Source: a virus (Duplodnaviria; Caudoviricetes). Taken from it: a stretch of 64,000 nt of DNA. Positions 15,007-33,028 of this stretch are shown here, one piece after another. The DNA is taken from the IMG/VR virus record IMGVR_UViG_3300043466_002015, positions 1,462 through 65,461 of that record; one strand, written 5' to 3'. Position numbers and translations under genes: made by a program. The notes under the pieces were generated by a model, which searched no databases, was not told where the DNA came from, and saw nothing but the letters and a program-made list of their open reading frames with translations. Every line of letters begins with the position of its first letter. The first letter of the stretch is position 1.

Positions 15007-15025
15007 TTGGCTGTTCCTTTATTTA

Positions 15026-16298: not shown

Positions 16299-18088
16299 TG
16301 TCCCATCCCCTGCAACATCGAGTTTCTTTGCTGCGAATTGACTTGCGGATTGCCGCCCATCAGCGTTTGTATCAAAGCGTTATTTCGAGCCTGTTCTGTT
16401 CCACCGCCGCTAACATTCCGCCTTATCGTTTCTCTGCTCGTCACTGGAGATTGCCTGATGGTGTTCTCATCACCACCTAGCATCTCGGCTGGGTTTGCAA
16501 ACGTAATAAATCGCTTGAACTCAGGTCTGTTTTTGAGTCTCGCTATTTCGTCAACAATGGCTTCGGCATCAATCGAAGCTCCTGACGCCTGGAACATAGG
16601 CCAGAGCGGGGCAATCTCGCGAAGCACCTGAAACAACTCCTGAAGCTTCTGCTCTGGAGTTTTGAACACCATCGAATACGGCTCGACTCGAAAGTCGTAA
16701 TCCTCAAATTCGCCTTCCCGATAATCTGGCGTCCAATCGGAATCAACAACAATATTTGTGTTGTCCACTTGCATTGAAGTTTTAAGTTCAAGCGTTGTGT
16801 CCTCCCACATTAACCTCCCAAGATCAAGAATGCACTCGGATGCGAACGATACAACAGCCATTCGCATGTCGGCAACATTCTTGGAAACGTTTCCATGGAT
16901 CAGCTCTTCCTGCCCAAGAGTCGATGCTTGAGAACCCAAGCCACCCATCGCTTGAAGGTTCCCAGCAAATCTGTCGTACTCTCCTTGGAGGAACGTAGCG
17001 AGAGCCATGTCTCTTTGGTCGATGCCACCACTCTGGAACTGCTTAATCTGGTCAGGGCTTCGTCCTCTGTACCATCCGTTCCTCTCAGCAGTTCTCAATC
17101 GTTCTGCATCATCTTCCATTCCCGGAGGATAGACGTTAACAACGCGATGAGCGTCCGAATCATCCTCCATTCGCCTATGAAGGCGGTTCTGAAGATCATG
17201 CATGCCTTTCAGATTGATAGCTGGCGACGTTGGGATAATGTTGTCTGGCGTATCACCAAGCGACAAGAACTTGTAAGGTCCAGCTTGAGAACCAGTCCAA
17301 TTTCGCTCAATAAGTGGTGGCAAGTTTTGTTGATCGCATGCCATTGTCACAATGGAGTTGTTTTCGGCAATCCATATGTCTTGAAGCCAAACCATATCCT
17401 TCAGATCGTCGTCTTGAGCACTTCCCCAGTCGGACGCGATGTCTCGAGCAGCACCTACTGAATCTTGATGCTGACGTTGTGTCGGAACGAGCTTGTCCTT
17501 AACCTTTTTATTGTACCCTGGCTCATCCATTATCTTTTCGTAGTCGGCACGGTAGCGATGCCCGCAATACCGCATCTTGCTCAGCTCTTTAGCTGGCATG
17601 TCAAGAATCAGGTCATCGAGAGACACACGGTTAAACCACGGCTCACCCGGATCAAGCCACACGTCTTCCTCTGACTCGAGCAAACCATGAAATCGCGTAT
17701 CTGTGTCTCGCATCATGACAACGCCACAACCAAGACAGAAAAATGCGTCCATGACAATGGATCTGAACGTCTTGTCTAAAGACATGTCGCCAATCAACTT
17801 GGTCAGGTTGACTTCGAACCGCCTAGCGAAGGGGATCTTGTCTGCTCTCGAAGTAGAAACCAACACCATAGGGTTGTTGGCAGCGAGAGCCACCGTGTAG
17901 ATACGGGCTGTCTGGTTAATAAGGTTAACCAGCGTTTTGTTCTCAGCACCAGACTCAGCGTACCAAGAACCAACGTAATCTTTGATCAGTTCTTTTCTGA
18001 CACGACGAAACGGCTCTAGAGCATCTCGCGAAGAGCGAATTGCCTTATAAAGCCTGTCTCGTTTTTTTGGATCTTCTAAGTCAAACAT
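16295..18088 (-). CDS. Portal protein
   Basis: 597 aa, between terminase and scaffold, with a Gln-rich C-terminal tail. Confidence 0.75.
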   Translation of the reverse strand: MFDLEDPKKRDRLYKAIRSSRDALEPFRRVRKELIKDYVGSWYAESGAENKTLVNLINQTARIYTVALAANNPMVLVSTSRADKIPFARRFEVNLTKLIGDMSLDKTFRSIVMDAFFCLGCGVVMMRDTDTRFHGLLESEEDVWLDPGEPWFNRVSLDDLILDMPAKELSKMRYCGHRYRADYEKIMDEPGYNKKVKDKLVPTQRQHQDSVGAARDIASDWGSAQDDDLKDMVWLQDIWIAENNSIVTMACDQQNLPPLIERNWTGSQAGPYKFLSLGDTPDNIIPTSPAINLKGMHDLQNRLHRRMEDDSDAHRVVNVYPPGMEDDAERLRTAERNGWYRGRSPDQIKQFQSGGIDQRDMALATFLQGEYDRFAGNLQAMGGLGSQASTLGQEELIHGNVSKNVADMRMAVVSFASECILDLGRLMWEDTTLELKTSMQVDNTNIVVDSDWTPDYREGEFEDYDFRVEPYSMVFKTPEQKLQELFQVLREIAPLWPMFQASGASIDAEAIVDEIARLKNRPEFKRFITFANPAEMLGGDENTIRQSPVTSRETIRRNVSGGGTEQARNNALIQTLMGGNPQVNSQQRNSMLQGMGQ

Positions 18089-18171
18089 CCACAGTCGAAA
18101 TGGTTACGTCCAGTAATCCTATCTCGACTGGGTTTTAGCTCCAGCCTTTCATCAAACCAACTGACAACGTA

Positions 18172-18351
18172 TCAGATGGATTTCTTGGCAGAAGAGGGCG
18201 GCTTAGTTCCTTCAAGAACCGCCCTCGTCTGCGCAAGATTTAACGCTGATTGCGAAAAATGCAACGCCTTTTGGGCGTCAGGCTGAGCCTTCACTTGATC
18301 TGCCAATTTTCCAATTGCTAAGTCAATTTTTTCGTACAGCTCTTGTTCCAC
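18172..18351 (-). CDS. Small protein (59 aa) between terminase and portal
   Basis: Manually read GTG-start ORF MEQELYEKIDLAIGKLADQVKAQPDAQKALHFSQSALNLAQ..., flanked by two similar hairpins. Confidence 0.55.
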   Translation of the reverse strand: MEQELYEKIDLAIGKLADQVKAQPDAQKALHFSQSALNLAQTRAVLEGTKPPSSAKKSI

Positions 18352-18403
18352 TTTTTACCAACCCTTCAGGTTTTATCCTTGAACATTATGGCTAAGATAT
18401 CTT

Positions 18404-20305
18404 CTAGTCTCGCAAAACATCCCGTATTCCGTATCTCGGACTACTGGGTTTAATTCCACGTCGCTCCTGTTTCTCTCGCCAAAGAAAACTCCCATACTCT
18501 GGATTCTGACCGTTTTCTGTGTCGCTGTCAACTTTTACATTTAAATTATCTGTTGCAAACACTAACCAGGAGCCAGCTGCTGATATTGCGCGGTCTCCGT
18601 GATTCTTATCTGTAGCACCTTTGTTTTTAGTGGGAGCATGTACAATTTTAGCTCCGTCCCACTCATATTCTCCGCACTCAGCGATCATTTCGGCAGACCT
18701 TGGAATGTATCGCTTTTGCTCCATAGCGAGAGCAAACTGCTCAAACATATCTGCCTTGTCTACATCTCGACACGGAAATCCAGCCTTGCGACTTTTCTTC
18801 TGAGAGCCTAGCTGCAACACATCGCGATAAAATACGTTCCCATAATTGCAAACCTCAACTACTTCTTTGGCAAAACCTCCAGACACGCCAGAATCTTCCC
18901 AACCTAGAAGTGCTTTTCGCATCCACAGCGACAAACCAACGGCTATTCTTGCAAATGGACGAGGTTCCAAACCTTTGATGGTGTATTCCAGCACTTGTTC
19001 GCCAGTTCGATTGTCGATTCCCGAGGCTACGGAGTTGGACGAATATGCACCAACACCTCCTGACGCAATGTCACAAGCGATCGTAAAGGGACCGAGAGGA
19101 GCGCTGTTATCAATCCCTGGCTTAAACCACAAAGCAAGCGGTCCATCGTCCTTTGGGATGAGTCCCTTTAGTTCCAGCGTCTCTTGGTCAAACACGGGAG
19201 TTCCTCGCCACACCGGCTTCTGAGAGTTCTCTCGCTTCATCCTATCCAGCAAGTCGGGAGCAAATACCTTACCCGCAGAACCTTTGGCGTCCATGTCGAG
19301 TTCTCGAGCAATGTACCTTGGGGTCGATCCAGGTACAAGGCAGTGCGAGTCGTACCAAGGCGATCTCACCTTGCCTTCGATTTTATGCCCCTTCCTTTCG
19401 ATTGCACGAAGTTCCTTTTCGTGCGACTTGACATACTTGTCAACTTCCTCCTGATCCTCTGGCTTTACAGCCGACACTACGCCATCCTGCTTGACGTAAG
19501 CCAGCTTGGAATGCTCAGGGTTATCTTTCCAATCGAGAGAGTACACTCGCGGATTGTCTGGATCTGTAGCCGACTCGTAAAACACACCCGTATCGGCGCC
19601 GAAAGTCGAGCAAAGAAAAACGCAGTTCGTCACATGCGCCACGCTGCTCATGATTTTGTAATCGATGCCACCCGATATAAACTCTTCTGAGCCAACTTCG
19701 TCAAACGCGAACAGCGTCGTTCTACCTCCACGGGCAACGTCGGCAGTGGCAGAAAAACCAATCCACACAGCATCTGTTTTTGGTATTCGAATCGTATGGT
19801 CTGTGATGTTTCGATCGTAACCGTCGAGCATCCACAGCGGCAGCTTGTCGAGCATCATCGACAGCTTGTTCATAACAGCCGATGGATCCTTGGAGTCCAT
19901 CATCTTTTCGTTTCGAGTTACAAGACCCGAGGAGAATCCTTTCTCGATTAACGCGCGACGAATCTGAACTCCCAGATACGTGTACGTCCCTCCTTGAGCC
20001 CGGCTTTTCTTCACTGTCACCGAGACAGGATGTTCTTTATCCATCGCCTCGGTGATTGCATCATCCATAGCCATGATCACCGTCTCTTGGTGCTCCCAAG
20101 GTACGAACGGCTTCATTTTGATCTTGGCTCGAGGTTCATGCACCCATAAAGCAAACGCGAAGAAAAACAGAGGATCGTCTTCACACGCCTGGAGCAGAGC
20201 ACTCCTAAATCGTTCGTCTATCAATGCTCGTTCTCGACAACGAATACGCCATTGCAAGTTTTCCGCAATGTTCTTTGGCGCTAAGTCGTAAAACTGTGAC
20301 GGCAT
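18404..20305 (-). CDS. terL: Terminase large subunit
   Basis: Walker A-like KSRAQGGT, Walker B FAFDE, STF coupling motif, nuclease ACDIASG and HGD motifs. Confidence 0.9.
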   Translation of the reverse strand: MPSQFYDLAPKNIAENLQWRIRCRERALIDERFRSALLQACEDDPLFFFAFALWVHEPRAKIKMKPFVPWEHQETVIMAMDDAITEAMDKEHPVSVTVKKSRAQGGTYTYLGVQIRRALIEKGFSSGLVTRNEKMMDSKDPSAVMNKLSMMLDKLPLWMLDGYDRNITDHTIRIPKTDAVWIGFSATADVARGGRTTLFAFDEVGSEEFISGGIDYKIMSSVAHVTNCVFLCSTFGADTGVFYESATDPDNPRVYSLDWKDNPEHSKLAYVKQDGVVSAVKPEDQEEVDKYVKSHEKELRAIERKGHKIEGKVRSPWYDSHCLVPGSTPRYIARELDMDAKGSAGKVFAPDLLDRMKRENSQKPVWRGTPVFDQETLELKGLIPKDDGPLALWFKPGIDNSAPLGPFTIACDIASGGVGAYSSNSVASGIDNRTGEQVLEYTIKGLEPRPFARIAVGLSLWMRKALLGWEDSGVSGGFAKEVVEVCNYGNVFYRDVLQLGSQKKSRKAGFPCRDVDKADMFEQFALAMEQKRYIPRSAEMIAECGEYEWDGAKIVHAPTKNKGATDKNHGDRAISAAGSWLVFATDNLNVKVDSDTENGQNPEYGSFLWREKQERRGIKPSSPRYGIRDVLRD

Positions 20306-20419
20306 ATTTGCTGTTAAAAGTAAAAAAGGTCACGCAACTTGATGCTGCGCGACCCCAGGAGATTTGCTCTGAGAGAGCAGCATTAATATATCTGCAAATG
20401 ACAACGTGTCAAATACAGA

Positions 20420-20716
20420 TCATTTCCTTTCAAGAGCTTCCCTCATACTCATCGTTTTCAGTCTAGCCCTCAAGGTCGATTCCTTGATTCCATGCGAGGT
20501 AGCCCACTCCTTCAGCGTCATTTTCTTTCCGGCGTGATAAATGCCGCACATTCCACAGGATGACGTGTGTCCGCTTTGCAAGTGATCCAGCCTTACTTCA
20601 GCTTGGTCGCCGCATGTGCAATCGCAACGAAACTTTCGCTTCCCTGACGACTCCACCTCGCAAATCACCTTCAAGTTCCCGTAAACCGTTCCAGGCTTCA
20701 CTTCTATCCTTCTCAT
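20420..20716 (-). CDS. Homing-endonuclease-derived protein lacking the HNH core
   Basis: YGNLKVI...CDCTCG...L.SG.T.SCG N-terminal domain joined directly to a TLKEWA...GI...TL..RL helix-turn-helix. Confidence 0.6.
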   Translation of the reverse strand: MRRIEVKPGTVYGNLKVICEVESSGKRKFRCDCTCGDQAEVRLDHLQSGHTSSCGMCGIYHAGKKMTLKEWATSHGIKESTLRARLKTMSMREALERK

Positions 20717-20815
20717 TAACCAAACCTATCCTCGCCAGAAAACCACATCAATGCACACATTGTAGCAACATAGACCCAATTACACAACAAAGTGCCATTT
20801 AGGCGACTACCCTAC

Positions 20816-20844
20816 TTGACACAGTTACGGCCGTAACCTAGCAT
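20816..20844 (+). promoter_or_regulatory. Sigma70-type promoter of the resolvase with a palindromic operator
   Basis: TTGACA-17 nt-TAGCAT. The spacer contains the perfect palindrome GTTACGGCCGTAAC (20824-20837). Confidence 0.7.
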
Positions 20845-20889
20845 TGCCAACGTTGTTTCGTTTGTTTTTACTCGCAAGGGAGATTTGCA

Positions 20890-21489
20890 ATGACCGTAGC
20901 GGCTTATGTTCGAGTTAGCACAGCTTCACAGAATGAGGCTAGTCAGAAGCGTGAGATTACCAAGTGGTTGTCTGGAAACGGCATCAACGCCAACCAAGTG
21001 CTGTGGTACGTTGACAAGGAGAGCGGAGAGACGCTTAAGAGAGCCGAGTTCGAACAGCTTCAGCGAGATATTTTCAACGGCGTCATCAAAACTGTCGTCG
21101 TGTACAAGATTGATCGCCTCTCGAGATCACTAAAGGATGGGATCGATACGCTGTGTACGTGGTGTCAGAACGGGATCCGCGTTGTCTCAACCTCGCAACA
21201 AATCGATTTCACAGGCGCAATGGGACAACTGGTTGCGGCAGTGTTGTTTGCCGTTGCGCAGTTTGAAACTGAGACCAGAAGAGACAGGCAAGCAGCTGGA
21301 ATCGCGGCAGCAAAGGAGAAAGGAACTTATCGAGGAAGAGCACCAGGAGCTACCAAAGCTGGAGTTAACCCCTCTCGCGCTGCGGAACTTCGAGAGAAGG
21401 GACTCACGCATCAGGAAGTTGCGAAAACGCTAGGAGTGAGTCTGAGAACAGCATTCAGGTACTCCCAACTGCCATCGAGTCAGACATAG
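20890..21489 (+). CDS. Small serine recombinase (resolvase/invertase family)
   Basis: YVRVST catalytic motif, DRLSRS and a C-terminal HTH. Confidence 0.95.
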   Translation: MTVAAYVRVSTASQNEASQKREITKWLSGNGINANQVLWYVDKESGETLKRAEFEQLQRDIFNGVIKTVVVYKIDRLSRSLKDGIDTLCTWCQNGIRVVSTSQQIDFTGAMGQLVAAVLFAVAQFETETRRDRQAAGIAAAKEKGTYRGRAPGATKAGVNPSRAAELREKGLTHQEVAKTLGVSLRTAFRYSQLPSSQT

Positions 21490-21522
21490 GCGCACCCCAG
21501 GCCCATATAAGGTATGCAATCT

Positions 21523-21573
21523 CGCTCGTTGCCGGAAATTACGGGTTTTTCCCGTAATACTGACCAGCGAGCG
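21523..21573. terminator. Long hairpin between convergent transcription units
   Basis: CGCTCGTTG..ATTACGGG-TTTTT-CCCGTAAT..CAGCGAGCG. Confidence 0.35.
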
Positions 21574-21950
21574 TATTCGGGAGAGTTAAGAGGCGAGCAG
21601 CCTGCACTGCTTTCTCGCCGTTCCCTCTCCCAGCGTCCACTCACCGTCAGCCTGTTGCTCCTGTACGACCCTTGAGGTTAAGAGCCTCTCCACGCCGCAG
21701 GGCGCTTTGCCGACTCAATCCCATGCACTTTGGCGGTCTTCCACAGATCGGACAACTTGCTCAAACGATTGCACGCACAAGCACTGGCTACCCAGCATTA
21801 AACTCATGCAATATACGTGCTCCCCCTCTGATGTGGATTGAGGGAGAGCGGGTCGACAAAGCATCGGACCCTTGAGCAGAAGCGTTAAAAACGCGATTAA
21901 CCTAAGCCTTGTCTTGCTGAATCCACTCAGCTTTCCAAATACTAATCCCG

Positions 21951-22250
21951 CTAATTGCTGTCGTCAACAACGCTTGCGAGCATTTTGCGGAAATCCTTAG
22001 ATTCAACTAGCACAGCCTTGGCTAGACTTTCGAGTGATTCGATAGCCCTTACCTTGACTTCTCGCTCGGTTTCAGCGAGACGAGCCTGTTGGTGCTTCTC
22101 GGAAAACGACTCAATAAGTCTAGCAGCATCCAAATGGAATCTTGCCTTTAATGACTCCTCGCCCTTTTCGCCTGCTCGCCAACTGACATTGTGTCGAACC
22201 TTTTTCGCCTGCTCTCTGTGCCATTCGGCAAGCATCTCAGCATTCATCAT
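21951..22250 (-). CDS. Hypothetical protein
   Basis: 99-aa ORF with a CAGGAG RBS. Confidence 0.6.
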   Translation of the reverse strand: MMNAEMLAEWHREQAKKVRHNVSWRAGEKGEESLKARFHLDAARLIESFSEKHQQARLAETEREVKVRAIESLESLAKAVLVESKDFRKMLASVVDDSN

Positions 22251-22270
22251 TTACTTCTCCTGACAGACTG

Positions 22271-22516
22271 TCAGTCTTTGTTTGCTTCCGCGTAAAGAGC
22301 CAAAAAATCCTCTGGAAGCACTTCTGACTTGACACCATTTTTAGTCCAATGATCAAACAAAATCAACGATAACCGATTGACCAAAGCGATAATTGCTTTG
22401 TCGTATCCGAGTTCTCGGACATCCGAACGCACAAGCGTTGAAAACAGCTCGCGATCGCTCCTGCTCTCCATAAACGCTTGGTAAGCCATTTGCTTGATAG
22501 TCATTGCGGCTGGCAT
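22271..22516 (-). CDS. Hypothetical protein
   Basis: 81-aa ORF with a GGAG RBS. Confidence 0.6.
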   Translation of the reverse strand: MPAAMTIKQMAYQAFMESRSDRELFSTLVRSDVRELGYDKAIIALVNRLSLILFDHWTKNGVKSEVLPEDFLALYAEANKD

Positions 22517-22531
22517 TGTAACTCTCCATAG

Positions 22532-22888
22532 CTAAATTACGGTCATCCCATCAATGCCGGCATTATAGTCTTTCCAGCACGCATGCCCTTCTTTAACGAG
22601 CGTCTCGCAAACCCATTGACTACTTTGAGGAGACTGGATATCGGCAAGATATCTACCGTATTTTTCTCTTTTGTCTTTGAGTGTTCTTACGTTGCAGATT
22701 GTTGCAACCGGGAGAAGCTCCATAAGCCTAAGTTTAGCAGCCTTTCCCTCTTCTGTGTTCATTTCAGGAGCGTTAATCCAGGCGAGACGAAACCTCAATT
22801 TGATTGAAATATCAAAACCGAGGTCAACTTGAGCATCCACCGTATCGCCGTCAACAACCTTTATTATGGAACAGGAATACTCGTACAT
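22532..22888 (-). CDS. Thermonuclease (SNase-like)
   Basis: VVDGDT, RLAWINAPE and KYGRYLA motifs. Confidence 0.9.
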   Translation of the reverse strand: MYEYSCSIIKVVDGDTVDAQVDLGFDISIKLRFRLAWINAPEMNTEEGKAAKLRLMELLPVATICNVRTLKDKREKYGRYLADIQSPQSSQWVCETLVKEGHACWKDYNAGIDGMTVI

Positions 22889-22943
22889 TACCCAATCCTT
22901 TCTGCACCGATGATGTCTCCACCCTCTCCATCAAACACGCTCA

Positions 22944-23522
22944 TTATGCGTAATCGCCTCCATGCCAAAACGTTACTTTTTGAACATTGCCCTTGTCGTC
23001 TCTATCAACAATCCAATGGTTGTTGAACTTTTCCCACCAAAACGTCAAATCATACTTGCTGTCGTCGTAGTAACGACACACAAAATCTGACTTAAACTTT
23101 GAATGCACGTTTTCGAAAAGAGTTGAGGTGATCAACTTATACACTGGGAAGTTTTCGCTCAACAGCTTGCACAACCGGGTGTAATTCGACCCTCGAATAA
23201 CGCCAGCTTCGACGAGGACAATGTTTTGTTTTAGAGCGGCATCATCAAATGCTCGCAATATGCTCTCAGTGGTGGTTTCCGTCCATGGTTCGTCGGGATA
23301 TGGCACATCAACGCAAAAACCGCTACATATCTCGCCATCTCTGGACAGGTGATGCCGCAGCACTTGCCAAGCAATTGACGAGTAATCTGACGAAACGCCA
23401 ACCAGTGTTGTGTTTAGAGCATCAAGACCCGCATTGGCTAAAAGCAATGCCATATGATTTATAATTTGATGTTCGATAGTTGGATCGATTATCAGCTCTT
23501 TTCGCGTCTGCTTCTTACTCAC
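22944..23522 (-). CDS. Divergent phosphoribosyltransferase-fold protein
   Basis: IVLVEAGVIRG resembles a PRPP loop, and the C-terminal LTFWWE resembles xFPWE. Confidence 0.5.
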   Translation of the reverse strand: MSKKQTRKELIIDPTIEHQIINHMALLLANAGLDALNTTLVGVSSDYSSIAWQVLRHHLSRDGEICSGFCVDVPYPDEPWTETTTESILRAFDDAALKQNIVLVEAGVIRGSNYTRLCKLLSENFPVYKLITSTLFENVHSKFKSDFVCRYYDDSKYDLTFWWEKFNNHWIVDRDDKGNVQKVTFWHGGDYA

Positions 23523-24073
23523 TCCGTCACCTCCACGCCAAAATGCGAACCGTCATCAAATACCTTTTCGTTGAAACTATCACTCCAACCGTGTGCTCCG
23601 TGAAATTTGTCTGAATAACAACAAGGTGGATTAAAATCGTTTGGATCTTCTTTCCATCGCCACCATCGATCCCGATGCGGCTTGAACTCCTCAGCATTGG
23701 CAAATTGTCGATATTGCTTCGGCTTCTCGATCTTGCGTAACACAACAGCCCATCCGGTACTTGGATGAGGGCCTTCCCATGCTTCAACGGATCGATCAAT
23801 CAGCAACCTGTATTCACCAGCTACTACGACACCAATCCGCACCAACTCCCATCCTTCTGGTACGCCTGGGATGCCTCGAAAACCTTGCTCGTTGCTCATT
23901 TCTTCCTCCACATCGCATAAGAAATCAAACCACCACCAGCCACCGCGAACGGAACCCACCAGGGTATGGCGGATTCCACTAGGTAGCGAAATTCGAATAA
24001 GCTCATTGGTTTTCCTTTGCAATTCGGAATATCGTGAATTCAACATATCACCGTGATATGCGGAGTTCCGCAT
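23519..24073 (-). CDS. Hypothetical protein (true start may be the internal MSNEQ)
   Basis: ORF track. GGAAGAA precedes the internal ATG near 23899. Confidence 0.5.
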   Translation of the reverse strand: MRNSAYHGDMLNSRYSELQRKTNELIRISLPSGIRHTLVGSVRGGWWWFDFLCDVEEEMSNEQGFRGIPGVPEGWELVRIGVVVAGEYRLLIDRSVEAWEGPHPSTGWAVVLRKIEKPKQYRQFANAEEFKPHRDRWWRWKEDPNDFNPPCCYSDKFHGAHGWSDSFNEKVFDDGSHFGVEVTE

Positions 24074-24088
24074 ACTATTTGTTATGTT
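24041..24088 (+). mobile_element. Degenerate short attC-like site at the left end of array 1
   Basis: TATGCGG-AGTT-CCGCATA hairpin, 6-nt spacer, then GTTATGT. The R'' box is imperfect. Confidence 0.4.
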
Positions 24089-24516
24089 GACCTATGTAGA
24101 TACTTTTCTCTTAGGCCATAGCTACTCTTGCTGGTCTTGTCTTTGTAGTTGCCTTCGTGGTCGCGATACATTTGCACATCCGGCACGAACGTGTAAACAA
24201 ATCCTCCATCGCTGTAGTCAACATCTACTACAGTGCCCTCAACACCTACAGCCAGATTTTTCTCTGATCCCGACCAGCCACCTTCGCATTTGATTTTCTT
24301 GACAATGATAGCACGCTCCCCTTTTTTGATTGGAGAAAATCGCATTAGCAGTGCCTCGCTCTGTTCGACCAGTTTGACTAGGTAATAGTCCAATGGACCC
24401 CTAGCGAAAATCTCCTGAGCTTGCTGAATATGCTTCACTCCAGCCTTCATTCTCTCGACGAAATCCGGCAACATAACAACGGATTCCACCGAAGCCTCAT
24501 TAACGTCTGTTTTCAT
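24082..24516 (-). CDS. Cassette-borne hypothetical protein
   Basis: The stop lies in R' (G|TTA). The start and GAAAGG RBS lie inside the attC loop. Confidence 0.7.
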   Translation of the reverse strand: MKTDVNEASVESVVMLPDFVERMKAGVKHIQQAQEIFARGPLDYYLVKLVEQSEALLMRFSPIKKGERAIIVKKIKCEGGWSGSEKNLAVGVEGTVVDVDYSDGGFVYTFVPDVQMYRDHEGNYKDKTSKSSYGLREKYLHRST

Positions 24517-24559
24517 GGTTTACCTTTCTTATTCGGCTCGGTGAATCCGAGCGTTATCG
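24471..24559 (+). mobile_element. attC site
   Basis: ACATAAC-AACGGATTCCACCGAAGCC...GGCTCGGTGAATCCGAGC-GTTATCG, with extrahelical bases on the left arm. Confidence 0.85.
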
Positions 24560-24793
24560 TGACAAAACCTCTACCGCATCTTTCGCCTCGTCGTGGAGTC
24601 GCTCTCGCCACGCATCCGCTACTTCATTCTTAAACTGCTGTGGAGACCAACCAGACTCAATCGCGAGCGTTACCGCTTCCCAAACTGCATCTTCTACCTT
24701 AGATGGCGTCCGAACTCCCATTCGCAATCCAGAACCGTCAAACCCTAAACTCAAGCCTAGTGGTTTCATAAATACACCTTTGCACGATAACAA
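24554..24793 (-). CDS. Cassette-borne hypothetical protein
   Basis: Stop lies in R' at 24554. Confidence 0.65.
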   Translation of the reverse strand: MLSCKGVFMKPLGLSLGFDGSGLRMGVRTPSKVEDAVWEAVTLAIESGWSPQQFKNEVADAWRERLHDEAKDAVEVLSR

Positions 24794-24874
24794 ATCGGTA
24801 AACCGAAGTCGCCGGTCACCTAGTTCTCAAGCCCAAGTCTCTTGGCGGCGACTCGGTTACCGCTGGCGTTCATT
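24785..24874 (+). mobile_element. attC site
   Basis: CGATAAC-AAATCGGTAAACCGAAGTCGCCG...CGGCGACTCGGTTACCGCTGGC-GTTCATT. Confidence 0.9.
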
Positions 24875-25205
24875 TGAGCTTTATGCAGTCGTTGCACACA
24901 AAACTTGACTGTTTTCTGGTCTTACCGTTATCACACAACAAAACGTGCTGCTCTCTTACTTTTGTGCGTTCCTGCGGAAACTTCCAACGTTTGCATCTTG
25001 GGCATTGTCGCTGGCAAAGATGATGAATGCTCGTCATGTCATGAGCCCATTGATGCCACTGCAAATAACCATCTGGCGGCATCGAATCAATTGCGTAGCA
25101 CGGTCCTGGCTTCATCCCCATTTTCCACCAAATGAACAATTGATTGGACCGAAGCCGCGTTCGATCCGTTTTCTGATGGTTAATCGACCGACGCGGCTCG
25201 GTCAA
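24870..25205 (-). CDS. Cassette-borne Cys-rich hypothetical protein
   Basis: TGA stop lies in R'. CxxC pairs. The start lies within the attC and is uncertain. Confidence 0.65.
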   Translation of the reverse strand: MTEPRRSINHQKTDRTRLRSNQLFIWWKMGMKPGPCYAIDSMPPDGYLQWHQWAHDMTSIHHLCQRQCPRCKRWKFPQERTKVREQHVLLCDNGKTRKQSSFVCNDCIKLK

Positions 25206-25219
25206 TCAAAGCGTTACTC
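25131..25219 (+). mobile_element. attC site
   Basis: AATGAAC-AATTGATTGGACCGAAGCCGCG...CGCGGCTCGGTCAATCAAAGC-GTTACTC. Confidence 0.9.
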
Positions 25220-25681
25220 CGCCACATCGCACGAAAACAGATTCGGTGCCTGTCCACCCCAGAACTCTTTCGTGTCCAAACGCTCCATGTCGTCGCGAGT
25301 CGATCGCACGCGACAGTAGGGAGCTGTCACGACGACAATTCCTCTCGAGTTGTAGTGTCGCATAATCACTCCAGCGTGATTTCTCCACGGCCACTCTGAC
25401 CCATTGCCCAACAGCTTCCAACCGCAATTGTGCATCCTTCCATCAGACTCATCCCGCTTCCACAATATCGCCTGAGTCAAAACCAAGTCTCCCTTGTTGT
25501 CAAATACGCGATTGATCTCAATACAATCAACTTCATACTCGTGCGTTTCTGGCATCAAAGGAGACCCTAAAAAAGAAAGTAGCGCGGCAAGCATCATGCT
25601 TTTCCTGTAACAAAAAGGACCGTGTTTTTGTTTCAATCCCGATCGGTAAACCCGACTACCAAATTCGCCCGCAAACGTCAT
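25214..25681 (-). CDS. Hypothetical protein, possibly exported (start probably MMLAALL)
   Basis: ORF track. The stop coincides with the terminal R'. Confidence 0.55.
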   Translation of the reverse strand: MTFAGEFGSRVYRSGLKQKHGPFCYRKSMMLAALLSFLGSPLMPETHEYEVDCIEINRVFDNKGDLVLTQAILWKRDESDGRMHNCGWKLLGNGSEWPWRNHAGVIMRHYNSRGIVVVTAPYCRVRSTRDDMERLDTKEFWGGQAPNLFSCDVAE

Positions 25682-25744
25682 TTCGTTACCGAGCGGGTTG
25701 CATATTTAGGAAGTGTCGGGTGTTTGTGAAAAGTCCCTACAAAA

Positions 25745-27826: not shown

Positions 27827-28160
27827 GGTTACCCCTTCGCGCTATCTCTGAGCGCAACAATTCCTAGTAATCCGCAGGTTATTTATCGACGCTGCAACCG
27901 GGATTAATCCCCCGACTAGCCTGCTGGCTACCCCTCACGTCTATCAGCAGTGTAGGCTTTCGCCTGCTCACTGAAAATTGATCTCACTCCGGTGAGATCG
28001 CTCGGCATCGTCTCGGTCTGTGCTCTCGCCTTAGACTCTCGGTGACGCTGCACACCGAATAATTTTTACCAAAAATATCCGATGCGATCTGCACTGTCAA
28101 ATCATTGGTCAAACACACTTTATAAGACGCATGCCAAATAGAATATCGGAAATACCCTAC

Positions 28161-28189
28161 TTGACACCACAAGGGCTTGCCGATACAGT
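28161..28189 (+). promoter_or_regulatory. Sigma70-type early promoter
   Basis: TTGACA-17 nt-TACAGT upstream of the plus-strand operon. Confidence 0.75.
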
Positions 28190-28256
28190 GCAACACCCCA
28201 CGGGGGACGGCGGAAACGCCGATTCAAAAACAGTTCAAAACACAGGAGAAAGAAAC

Positions 28257-28769
28257 ATGGCAGCACGCAAACCATTCAAGGTTCAGAGTCGAGAGCAAGG
28301 ACGGGGTCGCATCAGCACCAACTCGTTCGCAACATTGAAAGAGGCACAGGACTTCGTCGCCAGCCACTGGCAAGGCGCTGACTACATCGACGGGGAAGCA
28401 AGCTTCCATACCGATTACTGCGACTTCAACTGCGTTGGATTCGTGCTGGCGGACATCGGCGAGCGTTACTGGGTTGATCGCGAAGGGTTTTATGAGTGGG
28501 AATGGAAAGACCTCGATGGCTCGAAGCGGTTCACCGTGGTTGCCTGGAGCGATGAGGAAGACCGATCGCCGCAGAAGACCGTCATTGCAAGTTTCGGCAC
28601 ACGGGAGCAGGCGATTGCCGAAGCGATCAGGTTGTGCAACGACGCAACGACGATCCATGTTGAAGACAACGGCAAGAACATTGGCTGGGCGCACGACAAG
28701 GACTTTTACGACGATGTTCCATTCGAGCAGGTTGCGTACCCTGCCGATGATTCACCGGTTCCTTTCTAG
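28257..28769 (+). CDS. Early hypothetical protein
   Basis: ACAGGAGA RBS before ATG 28257. Confidence 0.7.
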   Translation: MAARKPFKVQSREQGRGRISTNSFATLKEAQDFVASHWQGADYIDGEASFHTDYCDFNCVGFVLADIGERYWVDREGFYEWEWKDLDGSKRFTVVAWSDEEDRSPQKTVIASFGTREQAIAEAIRLCNDATTIHVEDNGKNIGWAHDKDFYDDVPFEQVAYPADDSPVPF

Positions 28770-28820
28770 GTCGAAACCCCTTCGGGGGTCCAATGGTACA
28801 GTGCCACTGCTGATGAGACC
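28769..28820 (+). ncRNA. Hammerhead ribozyme, type II
   Basis: GGTC-GAAA-CCCC-TTCG-GGGG-TC^CAATGG-TACAGTG-CCACTG-CTGATGA-GACC. The complete catalytic core is present, with a GUC cleavage triplet ending at 28790. Confidence 0.92.
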
Positions 28821-28841
28821 AATACAAACAGGAGAAAGACA

Positions 28842-29129
28842 ATGAGTACAGCAACAGGCAGGCAGGGTTTTGGATTCTGGGACACAACGTGCTACCCGAT
28901 TGGGGGCTGTTTCCGCCGCTTTGGGCAGAACGAAGCCGTTACCGACATCGCGAAATTGGATCGGGCATATCAAGGGGCAACCCACACGGGAAAGATCATC
29001 AGGGATGGGAAGACTCTCGCGATTGCTTTTGGCATCACCTCAGTAGAGTCGAGGGCTCGTAAGGCGTTCGAACCGAGCGAGCAAAGCGACTGGGCGTACA
29101 GCCGCGCTGAGGCTGGGTACGGAGATTAA
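28842..29129 (+). CDS. Early hypothetical protein
   Basis: ACAGGAGA RBS. Confidence 0.7.
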   Translation: MSTATGRQGFGFWDTTCYPIGGCFRRFGQNEAVTDIAKLDRAYQGATHTGKIIRDGKTLAIAFGITSVESRARKAFEPSEQSDWAYSRAEAGYGD

Positions 29130-29177
29130 CTAGCAGGGGTTAGGGCTAGTGCGGCAGGTCACCCGACCTGCGTCCCC
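29129..29177 (+). ncRNA. Unassigned pseudoknot motif, copy 1
   Basis: ACTAGC-AGGGGTTAGG-GCTAGT-GCG-GCAGGTC-ACCC-GACCTGC-GT-CCCC. Confidence 0.75.
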
Positions 29178-29207
29178 AGTTCATTCACATTCACAGGAGA
29201 TTTCCAC

Positions 29208-29591
29208 ATGCTTACGAACTTTCAAAGTGCGATCGACTTGGCCTCCAATGGTCGCAAACGGCTCCAGAAGACGAGCGAGACACGTTACGTGTATTTGAAC
29301 CGAGCTCGCCGCGCGTGCCACGATGCGATGGCTAGGCTTGCTGAATCGGGCGAATACACACACTGCCACAGAAGCTTCCTCATTCGCGACACGTTGCTAG
29401 TGGTCGAACAATGGTTTCCTGATCTCGGCACCTTCGGAGTTGAGAGCATTTATCAAGGCAGCAACCAGCGATCGCCAGCGATCGACTATTTGAACACAGG
29501 TGATGGCTACGAGCCGACCATCATGTACGTTCGGGGTCGGTTCCGCATCGGATGCTGGGCGGACATTGTCGAGCGCGGCAGCTACAACTAA
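29208..29591 (+). CDS. Early hypothetical protein
   Basis: ACAGGAGA RBS. Contains a YLNTGDGYEPTI segment. Confidence 0.7.
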   Translation: MLTNFQSAIDLASNGRKRLQKTSETRYVYLNRARRACHDAMARLAESGEYTHCHRSFLIRDTLLVVEQWFPDLGTFGVESIYQGSNQRSPAIDYLNTGDGYEPTIMYVRGRFRIGCWADIVERGSYN

Positions 29592-29617
29592 CACACAACA
29601 CACAGGAGATTTGGAAA

Positions 29618-30283
29618 ATGAGTCACGAAACGACACTTCATCCGTTTGAAGCCGCAGGACTGGGGCAAGCCCCCTTTCGGCTGCTCGCGATCCGCAAGAA
29701 TGTCTACTCCGCAGCACCCGGGCACAGCCAACCAGGAGGCTGCTGCTCGTATTGCTCTCAAGGCATCCTGTGGGAGTGCGTGATCAGATCTAGAGACGAT
29801 AAGACGTTTGTCGTTGGTCAAGATTGCGTGAGAAAGCTCGACAGAGGCGACAACAAGCTGGCAACCGCTGTTACGCGAGAACTCGCTCGCATCGCCAGGG
29901 AAGAGCGAGAAGCCGCGAGAGAGGCACGATGGCAAGCTCGGCGGGTCGCTCGCGAGGCGGAGCTAGATCGCCAACGTGAAGTCAACGGTGGATTGACGGA
30001 CAATGAGGTTGCGCAGCAGGCTCGCGAGAAGGCTGAGGATGAGGCTCGAAGAGTCTGGCGTGAGCGGAACTGGTGGCTGATATCGGTCCTTCAAGGGCAG
30101 TCCGGCGAGTTCTGCCGAGGTATGTGCGATACGTTGGAGCGCGGACCTGTCAGCGGGCTCTCGGAGAGGTGCCAATCGATCATGGCTGACGTCTACGCCA
30201 AGTCGTTCGGTCGCAGGGGGTCGAAGAAATACGATGCGGCAATCGACAAATTTACGGAAAGAGTCGAGTCGAGAGACCGTTGA
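29618..30283 (+). CDS. Early hypothetical protein, Cys-containing N-terminus plus coiled coil
   Basis: ACAGGAGA RBS. CSYC...VGQDC motifs. Confidence 0.7.
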   Translation: MSHETTLHPFEAAGLGQAPFRLLAIRKNVYSAAPGHSQPGGCCSYCSQGILWECVIRSRDDKTFVVGQDCVRKLDRGDNKLATAVTRELARIAREEREAAREARWQARRVAREAELDRQREVNGGLTDNEVAQQAREKAEDEARRVWRERNWWLISVLQGQSGEFCRGMCDTLERGPVSGLSERCQSIMADVYAKSFGRRGSKKYDAAIDKFTERVESRDR

Positions 30284-30351
30284 GGCTCGAGGGGGTTAGG
30301 TCGAGTGCGGCGAGCCTTTAGGCTCGCGTCCCCGCTGACACTGTGTCAGCA
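30281..30351 (+). repeat. 71-bp exact direct repeat, copy 1 (copy 2 at 33025-33095)
   Basis: The sequence is identical at both positions, and similarity continues through GGAGAGAGACGATGA. Confidence 0.9.
30285..30333 (+). ncRNA. Unassigned pseudoknot motif, copy 2
   Basis: GCTCGA-GGGGGTTAGG-TCGAGT-GCG-GCGAGCC-TTTA-GGCTCGC-GT-CCCC. Confidence 0.75.
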
Positions 30352-30383
30352 CAACCGTGAGACGTTGATTTTGGAGAGAGACG

Positions 30384-31211
30384 ATGAAAACGAAGACGAA
30401 GACGAAGACAAGAAAACAAATCAAGACTAAGGCGGAAATTGAACTGGCTAGGCGAATTAATTTCAGAGGACAGTACGTAGATTCGTTGCGATTGGCTGGC
30501 GAAAAGTATCTTAAGATTGCGGGCGGAGGCAGTTTGCTTGACGTGCAATCGATTCTGCAAGAAATAAATCGTCGTCACGCCGCTGCCGTGAAGTCTGACT
30601 GGGGAATGTCTCCGGCAAGTTACAAAAAGCTTCGAGACAAAGCGGCACAAATCCTTCGAGGCTTTACTACTGGTTATTCCATGGGAGAAGTGAAAAAACT
30701 TGTCATCGGCGAAAAACCGTTTCTGACGGTTGATAATACTCGAGAGTACGCCCGTAGTTCCAAGTACACAGCAACACACGGTGAACTGATTGTCACGATT
30801 TCGCTTGCCGAATTGCGTAAGATCGAGTGCGTAGAAGGTGTGTGGACTGTTCGCCTCGCAGGAGGGCAAGCCCAATGGTTGCGCGCCAAAGGGCTGAAAG
30901 GCAATTGTCGAATCGGTTGGGTGAAAGGATACCTTGTCGGATCCTCGCACGGCGCAACCCTCGATGAATGCCAACTGCTCGAGGCAGGAAAAGCAACTCG
31001 AGGCGACGATGGAAAGATCAAGCGATTTGACAGATTCATCGGCTTGCGAGACCGAGTTGCAGCAGGCGCATGCGAAGCTGGCGTTTTGGCATTCTGCGAG
31101 CGTCATGGGCTCAACCCCGACTTCGGCTATCGCATCGATTATCTACTCAGCCTCAAGGATGACCTCGCTGCATCGTACTTGAATCGAGTGGCTCGACTGC
31201 TCAAGCGATAG
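30384..31211 (+). CDS. Early hypothetical protein
   Basis: 275 aa with a GGAG RBS and a C-terminal GAC..G...FC motif. Confidence 0.7.
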   Translation: MKTKTKTKTRKQIKTKAEIELARRINFRGQYVDSLRLAGEKYLKIAGGGSLLDVQSILQEINRRHAAAVKSDWGMSPASYKKLRDKAAQILRGFTTGYSMGEVKKLVIGEKPFLTVDNTREYARSSKYTATHGELIVTISLAELRKIECVEGVWTVRLAGGQAQWLRAKGLKGNCRIGWVKGYLVGSSHGATLDECQLLEAGKATRGDDGKIKRFDRFIGLRDRVAAGACEAGVLAFCERHGLNPDFGYRIDYLLSLKDDLAASYLNRVARLLKR

Positions 31212-31335
31212 TACTTGGTTCTCCCGATAGTTTCCGCACTACTATCGGAAAGTCTCACAAAGTGCGGCGCGGTGCTCCCGATGCGTATTCGGGGGACTTT
31301 TCAACCGTGCCAATTACAATTCTCAGAAACCCTAA

Positions 31336-31364
31336 TTGACACGGTGTCGCGTTGACGATACATT
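31336..31364 (+). promoter_or_regulatory. Second sigma70-type early promoter
   Basis: TTGACA-17 nt-TACATT. Confidence 0.75.
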
Positions 31365-31409
31365 GGTAACTGCACTTCGCAGCACCAACAAAAACACACA
31401 GGAGAATTG

Positions 31410-31880
31410 ATGATGACTGACAATTTGTTTGAGACCGACCCCCGCAGTTTCGCGCTCAATTTGGCAGAAAACCAAGTGGTTTCCGCTGATCACCTGCTGC
31501 TCTGCGCGATCAAGTACATGAGTCATGACGATGTTCGCGACATGCTCGACGCAAATGGTCTCTCCCCAAGATTCGACGAAGAAGAGGTGTGCATCGATTG
31601 CGGTGGCGAAAACATCGAAGAGGGCACCTGCACCGACTGCGAGCGAGAAGATTGGTTGTCGAAACACGACGATGGTAATCACGACATCGATGCGATGAGG
31701 ATCGATATCTCCAATAACAACCTTGCAGTCGGCGACGACGACAGGGCTGGCGAATACGAGCACGCTGAAATTGTGAGAGCATCGGTCGAAAACGGACAGA
31801 TAACGCAAGCGCGAGAACAGGCTGAGCGGTACGGTTATTCGCAGGAATGGGTCCAAAGCCTCGTAGATTGCGAGGGCTGA
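31410..31880 (+). CDS. Early acidic hypothetical protein with a zinc ribbon
   Basis: ACAGGAGA RBS. CIDC...CTDC motifs. Asp/Glu-rich. Confidence 0.7.
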   Translation: MMTDNLFETDPRSFALNLAENQVVSADHLLLCAIKYMSHDDVRDMLDANGLSPRFDEEEVCIDCGGENIEEGTCTDCEREDWLSKHDDGNHDIDAMRIDISNNNLAVGDDDRAGEYEHAEIVRASVENGQITQAREQAERYGYSQEWVQSLVDCEG

Positions 31881-31882
31881 TA

Positions 31883-31929
31883 GCTTGGAGGGGTTAGGCC
31901 AAGCGCGGGAGTCCTCGGGCTCCGTCCCC
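31883..31929 (+). ncRNA. Unassigned pseudoknot motif, copy 3
   Basis: GCTTGG-AGGGGTTAGG-CCAAGC-GCG-GGAGTC-CTCG-GGCTCC-GT-CCCC. Confidence 0.75.
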
Positions 31930-31996
31930 AGATTGTGAATCATGGCACATCCTCCATGGTGGCAAGCCGAGCCGAAACGGCACAGGATTTAATACA

Positions 31997-33009: not shown

Positions 33010-33028
33010 AGGGTCGAAGACGAGTGAG

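Follow-up and report, generated by a model that had tools for sequence, protein, structure and literature searches.

Clusters of attC sites lacking an integron integrase (CALINs) have already been described from phage genomes (Qi et al., 2023; PMC9892861). In that study only 17 CALINs were recovered from 10,705 NCBI phage genomes; since five of the six phage attC sites tested were recombined by IntI1, action of a host integrase on phage-borne attC sites is plausible. The bearing sections of that paper (supplementary tables excluded) report no CALINs from phages of Planctomycetota, and the words "antisense" and "opposite" are absent from its text. The integrase IntI can also insert cassettes outside of integrons, at short secondary sites (attG) of the form 5'-GWT-3' (10.1101/2022.09.11.507474). 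Chromosomal integrons, for which IntegronFinder provides the framework (PMC4889954), form sedentary arrays in Pirellulales and Planctomycetota that combine IntI with a homogeneous series of attC sites. Finally, T4-type phages reportedly carry promoter stem-loop "mobile regulatory cassettes", small accessory genes that are flanked by repeated stem-loops and shuffled among relatives; these are thought to move by homologous recombination between the repeats.

The window, the whole 64,000-nucleotide stretch of phage DNA analysed here, contains two attC arrays. The first, array 1, is likely a genuine integron cassette array without an integrase, in other words a CALIN, situated in the early accessory region of a probable Pirellulales phage and exchanged by way of the integrase of its host. 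The published phage CALINs resemble it as attC arrays with cassettes and without IntI; four features seen here go unreported in that study: ORFs of reversed polarity, cassette turnover at a conserved anchor, identity between phages bounded exactly at G/TT (the slash marking the cut), and a ribosome-binding site with ATG inside attC loops. The chromosomal integrons of Pirellulales and Planctomycetota share the attC sequence and structure family of the phage, its G/TT boundaries and its R''/R' self-complementarity; the bacterial arrays adjoin intI, whereas the phage arrays have none. As at attG sites, the array-1 anchor and the left border of array 2 end in G/TT without a canonical attC or a known attI; in contrast to attG, the array-1 anchor is conserved and reused, the first cassette differing from one related phage to the next, which brings it closer to attI, in the absence of an experiment. 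In contrast to the T4-type cassettes, the repeats belong to an integron attC family, and the breakpoints fall at the IntI cleavage point.

Anatomy and attC identity of array 1

Array 1 consists of three head-to-tail cassettes (24082-25213), and placing the cut at G/TT fixes them to the exact spans listed in Table 1. Each ends in an attC site of approximately 93 nt, and in all three the cassette's own R'' box is complementary to its first bases over 9 bp; such complementarity between R'' and the cassette start is a trace of the circular form. Cassette 3 is followed by the box GTTACTCCG (25213-25221). The ORF of cassette 1 has its ribosome-binding site and ATG inside the loop of attC A1, and its TAA stop is complementary to the opening three bases of the cassette; the stop of the cassette 2 ORF, likewise TAA, complements the TTA at the crossover, and the cassette 3 protein is Cys-rich with CxxC pairs. 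The left anchor combines the palindrome ATATCACCGTGATAT at 24045-24059 with a hairpin at 24057-24074; CTATTTG and the crossover base G24081 come next. As single-stranded DNA the anchor folds with a z score of -4.5. It is interpreted as an attI-like or attG-like secondary site and not as a canonical attI, its function being inferred. In array 2, where all ORFs lie on the minus strand, self-matches extend over 9-14 bp in three of the four cassettes and over 6 bp in the fourth.

Table 1. Features of the two attC arrays and the flanks of array 1 (positions in the window)
Feature	Position	Strand	Remarks
Left backbone and anchor of array 1	23895-24081	no strand	conserved phage backbone, ends in the left anchor
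Cassette 1	24082-24553	+ (attC top strand)	472 bp; self-match GTTATGTTG (24081-24089) with its complement CAACATAAC (24469-24477)
Cassette 1 ORF	24082-24516	-	144 aa, no known family
attC A1	24469-24561	+	R'' CAACATAAC, R' GTTATCGTG; 92 bits on +, 13 bits on -
Cassette 2	24554-24868	+	315 bp; bounded by G/TT; GTTATCGTG (24553-24561) matches CACGATAAC (24783-24791)
Cassette 2 ORF	24554-24769	-	71 aa from ATG, no known family
attC A2	24783-24876	+	81.4 bits on +; fold z -3.5
Cassette 3	24869-25213	+	345 bp; bounded by G/TT; GTTCATTTG (24868-24876) matches CAAATGAAC (25129-25137)
Cassette 3 ORF	24870-25121	-	83 aa from ATG, no known family
attC A3	25129-25221	+	89.5 bits on +; fold z -5.0; loop motifs in common with B1 of array 2
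Right-flank gene	25214-25681	-	155 aa, conserved; backbone resumes exactly at G/TTACTC
Array 2	41311-43021	+	cassettes 41311-41934, 41935-42332, 42333-42694, 42695-43021
attC B1	41847-41942	+	93.9 bits (covariance model)
attC B2	42246-42340	+	90.6 bits (covariance model)
attC B3 half-site	about 42667-42702	+	3' arm only, 5' arm lost; found by nhmmer only
attC B4	42938-43029	+	85.5 bits (covariance model)

The sites were scored with a covariance model that was built from the window's own six sites (A1-A3, B1, B2, B4) and is not a curated attC model. All six reach 81-94 bits on the plus strand and at most 20 bits on the minus strand; the array-1 sites score 81.4-92 bits (E <= 3e-20), the best match elsewhere in the window reaches 10.6 bits (E 0.93), and at the place of A2 no minus-strand match was listed up to E 10. 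The predicted folds have 21 base pairs in common, 13 of them with compensatory changes. The AAC and GTT boxes are invariant in all six sites, and every site, A1 included, has two bulged bases on the 5' (R''-L'') arm of the plus strand, the arm on which the bulges of canonical attC sites sit; the spacer, which is unpaired, consists of AA facing AGC or GGC, and loops are 30-40 nt long. In these respects the sites conform to the attC type, an imperfect palindrome that folds as single-stranded DNA and in which structure is better conserved than sequence. At the Rfam gathering threshold the sites had no matches.

That the sites are chance palindromes is all but excluded. In favor of this explanation, a single 9-mer self-match is by itself not rare, at about five per shuffled window: GTTN6 words with their reverse complement 150-1500 nt downstream on the plus strand number 12 in the window, six of them being cassettes of the two arrays, and averaged 4.72 in 50 shuffles (maximum 11). 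Against it stand the model scores and the covariation; a narrow pattern of this attC family, matched four times in the window where none was expected; and the occurrence of the family hundreds of times elsewhere. The sequence-only reading had named self-matches no better than chance as one possible refutation, and chance is ruled out by the model scores, the pattern and the covariation. What it had claimed for the anatomy held: the three cassettes with their coordinates, motifs and 9-bp self-matches are present without exception; the gene polarity is antisense as in array 2, with attC top strands on plus and ORFs on minus; and the sites it had placed at 25131 and 41851 (they start at 25129 and 41847) have in common AACAATTGATTG, CGAAG, CGTTTTCTGAT and TTAATC, so that both arrays use one attC family.

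The same family occurs in bacteria. Searched with the narrow pattern, bacterial genomes yielded 62 stretches, 54 of them labelled as Planctomycetota or Pirellulales taxa, and the integron integrase (TIGR02249) was found above its curated cut-off in four of five genomes with such stretches. In one of these (G005), 15 sites on the plus strand (C20:13491-25588) adjoin an intI gene on the minus strand (11208-12158); the same opposite-strand adjacency recurs in G004, with three integrons, and in G002, with one, and the orientation of the attC sites was checked against these intI genes. The family consensus, AACAA..CACCGAAGCC...GGCTCGGTG..GCGTT, is alike in phage and bacteria. Family membership is shown by this linkage to bacterial IntI, and since the family lies directly beside integron-integrase genes in Pirellulales genomes, the window sites are in all likelihood true integron attC sites; their recombination by IntI is inferred. 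As a caveat, some of the "bacterial" loci are possibly phage contigs binned into metagenome-assembled genomes.

In a typical cassette the ORF lacks a promoter and lies upstream of the attC, on its top strand. The window departs from this layout, since all six top strands are plus and the cassette ORFs minus; the layout is typical and not defining, and inverted cassettes exist in chromosomal integrons. A complete integron, with intI, attI and cassettes on one replicon, is not present either: a TIGR02249 search of the whole 65,461-b virus record returned no IntI candidates at all. The criteria for a CALIN are met, with three sites within 0.8 kb, three to four sites within 1.2 kb, all on the plus strand, and no IntI in the record. 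Since the phage record lacks IntI, the array is a phage-borne CALIN, which would have to depend on a host integrase.

Comparative evidence for cassette exchange among phages and samples

Cassette mobility is shown by comparison; recombination was not directly observed. Positions 24081-24555 of the window recur with 100% identity over 475 bp in two other phage loci (L071, 10821-11295; L098, 7587-8061), where both flanks of cassette 1 are unrelated to those of the window from G/TT onward; in L091 and L092, cassette 1 retains 84% nucleotide identity, and its protein is 92% identical. The left backbone and anchor are 91-93% identical in L071/L098, L115 and L126, and 84% identical in L073; the anchor alignments diverge directly after GTTA(T), where different cassettes follow in L071/L098, L115/L106, L073 and L126. 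At least five related phages thus have the same left anchor up to G/TT and then different cassettes. On the right, alignment of L115, L106 and L073 shows a flank conserved from GTTACTC rightward, including the 155-aa gene (70-72% amino acid identity), and a differing attC to its left.

Assemblies of independent sequencing runs break at the same places. Contigs of runs X2, X4 and X8 match the window up to 24083-24086 and then differ, a contig of X8 diverges after 24870, and loose contig ends fall at 24081 and 24555. The stretch 24081-24555 is covered by contigs of all four other runs examined, with different continuations from either end; including the window's own, cassette 1 occurs in three left and three right contexts. 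The exact boundaries are in this way shown both in further phages and in further samples. The run contigs contained neither excision joints nor circular junctions; contigs cannot show rare forms, and these leave the stretch partly uncovered. In the closest relative phage (G001, locus L001), whose helicase is 76% identical, attC-like sites are absent and an empty-site junction is not clearly recognizable.

The sequence-only reading had also inferred a recurring strategy rather than a single capture event. This is supported: the narrow pattern identified 53 stretches with 190 model matches in IMG/VR viral contigs, and at the array-1 locus each related phage has a different cassette set. It had suggested, too, a search for the attC arms in Planctomycetota genomes and viral databases, and the narrow pattern found the attC family in both. 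Its description of array 1 as an independent second array held only in part, in that both arrays draw on one phage cassette pool.

A first rival explanation takes the attC-like hairpins for mere repeats or relics and has modules shuffled by homologous or microhomology recombination between the conserved arms without any integron integrase, much as in the stem-loop cassettes of T4-type phages. The phage has no IntI; the arms contain conserved runs of 8-20 bases, on which homologous recombination could act; the phage encodes an annealing protein of the ERF family; and site B3 is a decayed half-site. However, the 100% identical block stops exactly at G/TT on both sides and not within the conserved arms, its left neighbor is a non-attC anchor without arm homology, and the breaks in other samples lie at 24081, 24083-24086, 24555 and 24870; moreover, the sites retain bulges, spacer and covarying stems, none of which a plain repeat would need. 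This explanation is considered unlikely.

According to a second, still less probable rival, a recombinase of the phage itself acts on the sites. The candidate is a 199-aa serine resolvase (20890-21486; resolvase domain PF00239, E 3.8e-33), encoded 2.6 kb from array 1. Yet a tblastn search of all collected loci, among them some 495 kb of viral sequence surrounding arrays, returned no homologue of it. In bacteria this site family is associated with IntI, and the res sites on which serine resolvases act are double-stranded DNA rather than folded single strands. We regard this possibility as very unlikely and retain the integrase of the host as the inferred catalyst.

Phage setting, cassette polarity and cassette products

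The virus record from which the window was taken (CheckV completeness 100%) is compact, with genes mostly in one direction. It encodes an ERF recombinase, a helicase, a D12 methyltransferase and a SASA esterase, along with a weak match to an SU10 portal; the arrays are embedded between the ERF gene, the helicase and the methyltransferase. Viral status rests on IMG/VR, CheckV and weak hallmark matches: PHROGs gave no matches for ten large ORFs, a PDB sequence search gave none for two of these, and blastn of 23500-25700 against INPHARED phages gave none. A tRNA scan found none, and the tRNA-like appearance of the sequence near 25.7 kb was not confirmed. GC skew tracks the direction of transcription and cannot give the direction of replication. 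The orientation of flanking genes is noisy. Among other array-bearing viral records, none of the five tested had IntI above cut-off, and two near-complete ones carry arrays of 8 and 10 sites.

The host probably belongs to the Pirellulales (Planctomycetota), an inference that rests only on the attC family and on terminase-like homologues, found in four of the 301 Pirellulales genomes searched. Two genomes with such homologues (G185, G252) have no attC sites at all. Integration of the phage into a host integron as a giant cassette is unsupported, there being no attC near the chromosomal terminase-like match in G198.

Cassette polarity was scored on 293 unique cassettes and differs strongly between the two settings (Fisher p 2.8e-25). 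Of the 104 unique viral cassettes, 62 have an antisense ORF, on the attC bottom strand, against 2 with a sense ORF and 40 that are unclear; bacterial arrays carry their ORFs mostly on the top strand (88 sense, 23 antisense, 73 unclear). Reversed polarity is therefore general to the viral cassettes examined, beyond this window; the counts are not phylogenetically independent, as a single group defined by flank similarity accounts for 34 of the 54 viral loci (the window being counted among the 54). No homologous protein pairs with opposite polarity were found. Whether the cassette proteins occur in phages or in chromosomal integrons had been proposed as a check, and in this sample no protein is common to bacterial sense cassettes and viral cassettes. 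An antisense ribosome-binding site with ATG lies in the attC loop of 56 of the 132 viral and window sites, versus 13 of the 110 bacterial sites.

These data bear on a third rival, in which the record is non-phage or a chimeric assembly and its arrays derive from a chromosomal integron of a bacterium. In its favor, hallmark matches are weak, and attC repeats do break and mis-join assemblies; yet the CheckV estimate, the compact and mostly unidirectional genome, and the placement of the arrays among the ERF, helicase and methyltransferase genes argue otherwise, as do the recurrence of anchor and flanks across several viral contigs and independent runs, the polarity and cassette content unlike those of bacterial arrays, and the 8- and 10-site arrays of the two other near-complete viral records. 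A chimeric or bacterial origin is thus very unlikely, and the record is treated here as that of a phage.

The cassette products remain without named functions. Searches of the cassette ORFs against Pfam and PHROGs gave nothing beyond a weak HTH_31 match for ORF 41938-42300 and a 21-bit tail-assembly match that was discounted. The cassette 1 protein has 17 homologous clusters, all metagenomic and none named, and its AlphaFold model (pLDDT 84) predicts a helical hairpin and a small beta-barrel. Its best PDB fold matches, to nitrile hydratase beta chains, reach only E 2.7e-3 or weaker and TM 0.32-0.38, which does not suffice to assign a function to this protein.

Proposed mechanism and implications

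In the mechanism favored here, the integron integrase of the infected host would act on the attC bottom strand in its folded form and recombine it either with a second attC or with the GTT of the conserved anchor (24081), which would behave like an attI or attG site. Cassettes may in this way be cut out, inserted and traded between phages that are related or infect the same cell. Located on the bottom strand of their attC sites, the cassette genes run in the same direction as the neighboring phage genes, and expression by read-through phage transcription is proposed on account of this co-directionality; expression itself is inferred. With the ribosome-binding site and ATG in the attC loop at many sites, and a stop codon that usually complements the TTA at or near the crossover, each cassette would constitute a self-contained translation unit.

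A bolder reading is that Pirellulales phages keep an inverted cassette pool of their own, shuffled through a borrowed host integrase at attI-like anchors, with translation starts built into the attC loops; the balance of evidence tips slightly against accepting it as it stands. Any benefit to the phage is inferred, and two purposes are conceivable. Host cassettes often encode defence systems or toxins, and inversion could insulate the pools, so that neither host cassettes in the phage nor phage cassettes in the host integron would be expressed. Alternatively, through inversion the bottom strand, the recombinogenic one, might come to lie on the non-template or lagging-template strand, which would allow more exchange within a short infection cycle.

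What appears to be new is that such arrays are common in these phages, that they lie at a conserved attI-like anchor, and that their gene polarity is reversed. Since attC families are taxon-specific, a theme of earlier work (PMC8352920), they would offer a practical marker for predicting the hosts of uncultured phages. Integrons are generally regarded as devices of bacterial adaptation, and anti-phage defences have recently been shown to be stored in their cassettes; if phages of an integron-rich lineage routinely carry attC arrays, exchange cassettes exactly at the IntI crossover and keep them in opposite polarity, integron machinery would serve both sides of the phage-host conflict and would, in addition, let phages trade genes with one another as modules.

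Cassette anatomy and identity of the attC sites

The sequence-only reading of 24041-25219 had described three complete cassettes, each with a perfect 9-bp self-match and in the antisense polarity of array 2 (41311-43021); this description held exactly, with all boxes and coordinates present in the sequence, and the observation was confirmed as a whole. The loop motifs claimed as common to the sites at 25129 and 41847 were likewise borne out by alignment. With the cuts placed at G|TT, the crossover point, the box that follows cassette 3 is GTTACTCCG, from 25213, and an imperfect palindrome of ~93 nt begins at each R'' box, a terminal box of attC. Single self-matches of the cassette type are not rare: the + strand of the window carries 12, and 50 shuffled versions average 4.72; 6 of these 12 are the cassettes of arrays 1 and 2.

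Features of the window (coordinates in nt)
Feature	Coordinates	Strand	Remark
Serine resolvase	20890-21486	+	199 aa with HTH domain; opposite to neighbours' strand
Cassette 1	24082-24553		Cut at G|TT; GTTATGTTG (24081-24089) complementary to CAACATAAC (24469-24477)
Cassette 2	24554-24868		Cut at G|TT; GTTATCGTG (24553-24561) paired with CACGATAAC (24783-24791)
Cassette 3	24869-25213		Cut at G|TT; GTTCATTTG (24868-24876) paired with CAAATGAAC (25129-25137)
Right-flank gene	25214-25681		155 aa
ORF block	28131-35839	+	
D12 methyltransferase	37479-38774		Farther from array 2, beyond helicase
Helicase	39684-41261		Other side of array 2
ERF-family gene	44497-45285		One side of array 2
Single long ORF	49858-62685	-	4,275 aa

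In an alignment of six sites (the three of array 1 and those at 41847, 42246 and 42938) the ends AACAA and GCGTT are invariant, two bulged bases occur on the + strand 5' arm of all six, and pairing is kept through two-sided changes in 13 of the 21 consensus pairs. A covariance model trained on these same window sites gave them + strand scores of 81-94 bits, a circular result; the informative parts are the strand asymmetry (at most 20 bits on the - strand at the six positions) and the absence of further matches, since nothing else in the 64 kb window exceeded 10.6 bits. A narrow family pattern (AACAA-N8-AYCGAAGYC-N25-55-GRCTCGRT-N8-GCGTT) is matched four times in the window versus zero expected.

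Among species-representative bacterial genomes, the narrow pattern was found in 62 stretches, 54 of them labelled as Planctomycetota or Pirellulales taxa, and an integron integrase (IntI) above the curated TIGR02249 cut-off was present in four of five pattern-bearing genomes tested. In the bacterial genome G005, intI (C20:11208-12158, - strand) is followed by 15 model matches on the + strand (13491-25588), with ORFs on the top strand and stops in or at R''; G004 has three intI copies, each facing an opposite-strand array, and G002 is arranged likewise. Opposite strands for intI and array constitute the 'regular' integron layout (PMC13323075). Since the intI-adjacent arrays of this family follow that layout, the window sites are true attC sites, and the + orientation of the model represents the attC top strand. 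Viral and bacterial attC sites share a single consensus apart from loop translation signals.

The three IntI copies with arrays in the complete Pirellulaceae genome G004:C1 (regions 2.96-2.98, 4.63-4.66, 6.02-6.04 and 6.96 Mb) occur together with five near-identical 322-aa tyrosine-recombinase ORFs, inside or beside arrays, that match TIGR02249 partially (~116 bits). Eight of the 62 'bacterial' matches carry MAG labels of other phyla (L008, L012, L030, L031, L044, L048, L049 and L051; Kapaibacterium, Verrucomicrobiota, Nitrospiraceae, Pyrinomonadaceae, Microcystis, Microbacteriaceae, Chlorobiaceae); their scored cassettes are antisense (L008, L048, L051), with viral homologues for L008 and L051, and these loci are likely to be mis-binned phage contigs.

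At array 2, site B3 (within 42590-42705) retains the 3' arm only, its former 5' half now being coding sequence; past B4, the site at 42938, a left half-site AAAACGATAAACCAAAGCCGCCGGTCATCTA (within 43040-43095), similar to the 5' arm of the array 1 site at 24783, is fused to the end of an ORF (43090-43494). The cassettes at array 2 seem to have become fixed through attC decay.

Phage genome context and host

The virus record that contributes the window (bases 1462-65461) is 65,461 b long with a CheckV completeness of 100%, and no IntI candidate was found in its whole length; as a viral record without IntI, it makes array 1 a phage-borne CALIN, a cluster of attC sites lacking an integron integrase. 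The viral call rests mainly on IMG/VR and CheckV, together with the gene contents, namely the ERF-family gene, the helicase, the D12 methyltransferase, a weak SU10-type portal match (25 bits, below cut-off) and a phage-encoded SASA esterase; the large ORFs had no matches among PHROGs and PDB sequences. Homologues of the terminase-like protein (18407-20305) were present in 4 of 301 searched Pirellulales genomes, which is consistent with the Pirellulales host to which the attC family points; the host is inferred. Phage-borne CALINs as such are already known, with 17 in 10,705 NCBI phage genomes, and five of six tested phage attC sites were recombined by IntI1 (PMC9892861). Two more largely complete viral records contain one array each, of 8 sites (73 kb, CheckV 100%) and 10 sites (32 kb, CheckV 88%); IntI above cut-off was found in none of five other array-bearing viral records.

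Genes in the window lie mostly on the - strand, a single ORF accounting for one fifth of the phage genome; one + strand ORF block breaks this arrangement, and the sign of the GC skew flips across 28-36 kb, tracking transcription direction. The serine resolvase has no homologues in any fetched locus, including 495 kb of viral sequence that surrounds other arrays.

Cassette exchange at G|TT

Units with full integron-cassette anatomy have been exchanged at G|TT. The cassette 1 block (24081-24555) is 100% identical over 475 bp in the viral contigs L071 and L098, where identity extends from the G of G|TT to GCGTT and both flanks are unrelated; in L071 it occupies the second position of an array with seven sites, and a copy with 84% identity (protein 92%) occurs in L091 and L092 among yet other neighbours. 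Immediately left of array 1, a stretch of 190 bp (23895-24086) is shared with L071/L098, L115 and L126 at 91-93% identity and with L073 at 84%; all of these alignments split right after CTATTTGTTA(T), and beyond this anchor, the conserved phage backbone ending at G24081, the relatives carry different arrays of 4-7 sites. In L115, L106 and L073 the right-flank gene is conserved starting at G|TTACTC, and the attC on its left side differs. A further 23 lake-water runs contain roughly a quarter of the words sampled across 23600-25700. In the four runs whose contigs were compared, the contigs span 24081-24555, each piece differing at 0-5 letters, and turn to unlike sequence at 24081, 24083-24086, 24555 and 24870; with the window counted, they give cassette 1 three left and three right contexts and place four different cassettes after the anchor. 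Consisting of contigs, the run evidence shows presence and not rates, and no excision joints were listed in the contigs of the four runs.

The breakpoints, including those beside the anchor, which is not an attC, fall on the integrase cleavage position, and therefore IntI-type recombination is favoured over homologous repeat exchange. Because each relative carries a different first cassette, the anchor GTT seems to have been used repeatedly, in the manner of attI; that IntI can insert cassettes at short GWT sites outside integrons is documented (10.1101/2022.09.11.507474). No attC site is present in the nearest relative phage, whose helicase is 76% identical.

The backbone word TCAACATATC (24040-24049) is a near-complement of the cassette 1 start (TTATGTTGA), and anchor and first cassette resemble a complete short attC of ~50 nt in this phage alone; the first cassettes of relatives begin otherwise, and this resemblance could be chance, or a relic of the anchor's origin. 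The perfect palindrome ATATCACCGTGATAT (24045-24059) is operator-like in look and is present twice in tandem ahead of arrays in L065, L080 and L082.

Cassette polarity, products and a proposed mechanism

All cassette ORFs of the window lie on the attC bottom strand. Of the eight ORFs in the two arrays that end at a G|TT box, the right-flank gene included, seven have a stop codon complementary to the TTA right after G|; in the eighth, it lies one base further in. Polarity was scored across all fetched loci, with sites located by two rounds of nhmmer, by comparing the longest ORF per strand in intervals of 120-2500 bp between adjacent same-strand sites; a strand was called when its ORF filled 0.6 or more of the interval and exceeded the longest ORF of the other strand by a factor above 1.5, and all else was unclear. 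Raw counts were 93 sense, 24 antisense and 81 unclear for 198 bacterial cassettes, and 5, 73 and 47 for 125 viral cassettes. Merging at 95% identity left 293 unique cassettes: 88 sense, 23 antisense and 73 unclear in bacteria, versus 2, 62 and 40 in viral loci (Fisher p = 2.8e-25 for sense and antisense counts), and 0, 3 and 2 in the window. The 54 viral loci, window included, form 19 flank-similarity groups (the largest with 34 loci), of which 16 are mostly antisense, none mostly sense, and three without a scored cassette. No homologous cassette protein pair with opposite polarity was found; bacterial antisense cassettes with viral homologues were limited to L008, L011, L036 and L051, short MAG contigs (two of the four from non-Planctomycetota bins) that probably represent phage DNA. 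The polarity rule is crude, leaving ~40% of cassettes unclear, and all loci were retrieved with one narrow pattern. The attC loop carries an antisense RBS-like word with an ATG after it in 56 of the 132 sites from viral loci and the window, versus 13 of 110 bacterial sites. The text of the earlier phage CALIN study (PMC9892861) contains neither 'antisense' nor 'opposite'; its supplementary tables may list ORF orientations. Within the limited literature collection searched, no report of reversed polarity, attC-loop translation starts, conserved phage anchors or Planctomycetota phage arrays was found.

The cassette proteins belong to no family in Pfam or PHROGs. For the cassette-1 protein, 17 clusters of homologues are known, all metagenomic and unnamed, and fold matches to its model (pLDDT 84) were no more than weak. 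Cys-rich proteins with paired CxxC motifs are encoded by two cassettes (24870-25121 and 41935-42300, - strand), the latter also matching HTH_31 weakly (E 2.6e-4, below cut-off); the CxxC pairs and this match suggest that they could be small zinc-ribbon DNA binders. A counter-defence or host-takeover role of the cassettes is a guess from their early-region context.

In the mechanism proposed here, the attC bottom strand, in this phage the coding strand and the non-template strand in transcription, would fold while the phage infects a Pirellulales host that has IntI, and the host IntI would recombine it with another attC or the anchor GTT; read-through transcription from the phage would express the cassette genes, and the attC loop would provide their translation starts. 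An inverted Vibrio cholerae array shows a detectable recombination rate along its whole length (10.1101/2024.07.02.601686). The reversed polarity might insulate phage cassettes from the host cassette pool, it might make bottom-strand folding easier, or it may be a frozen accident in a self-reinforcing cassette pool.
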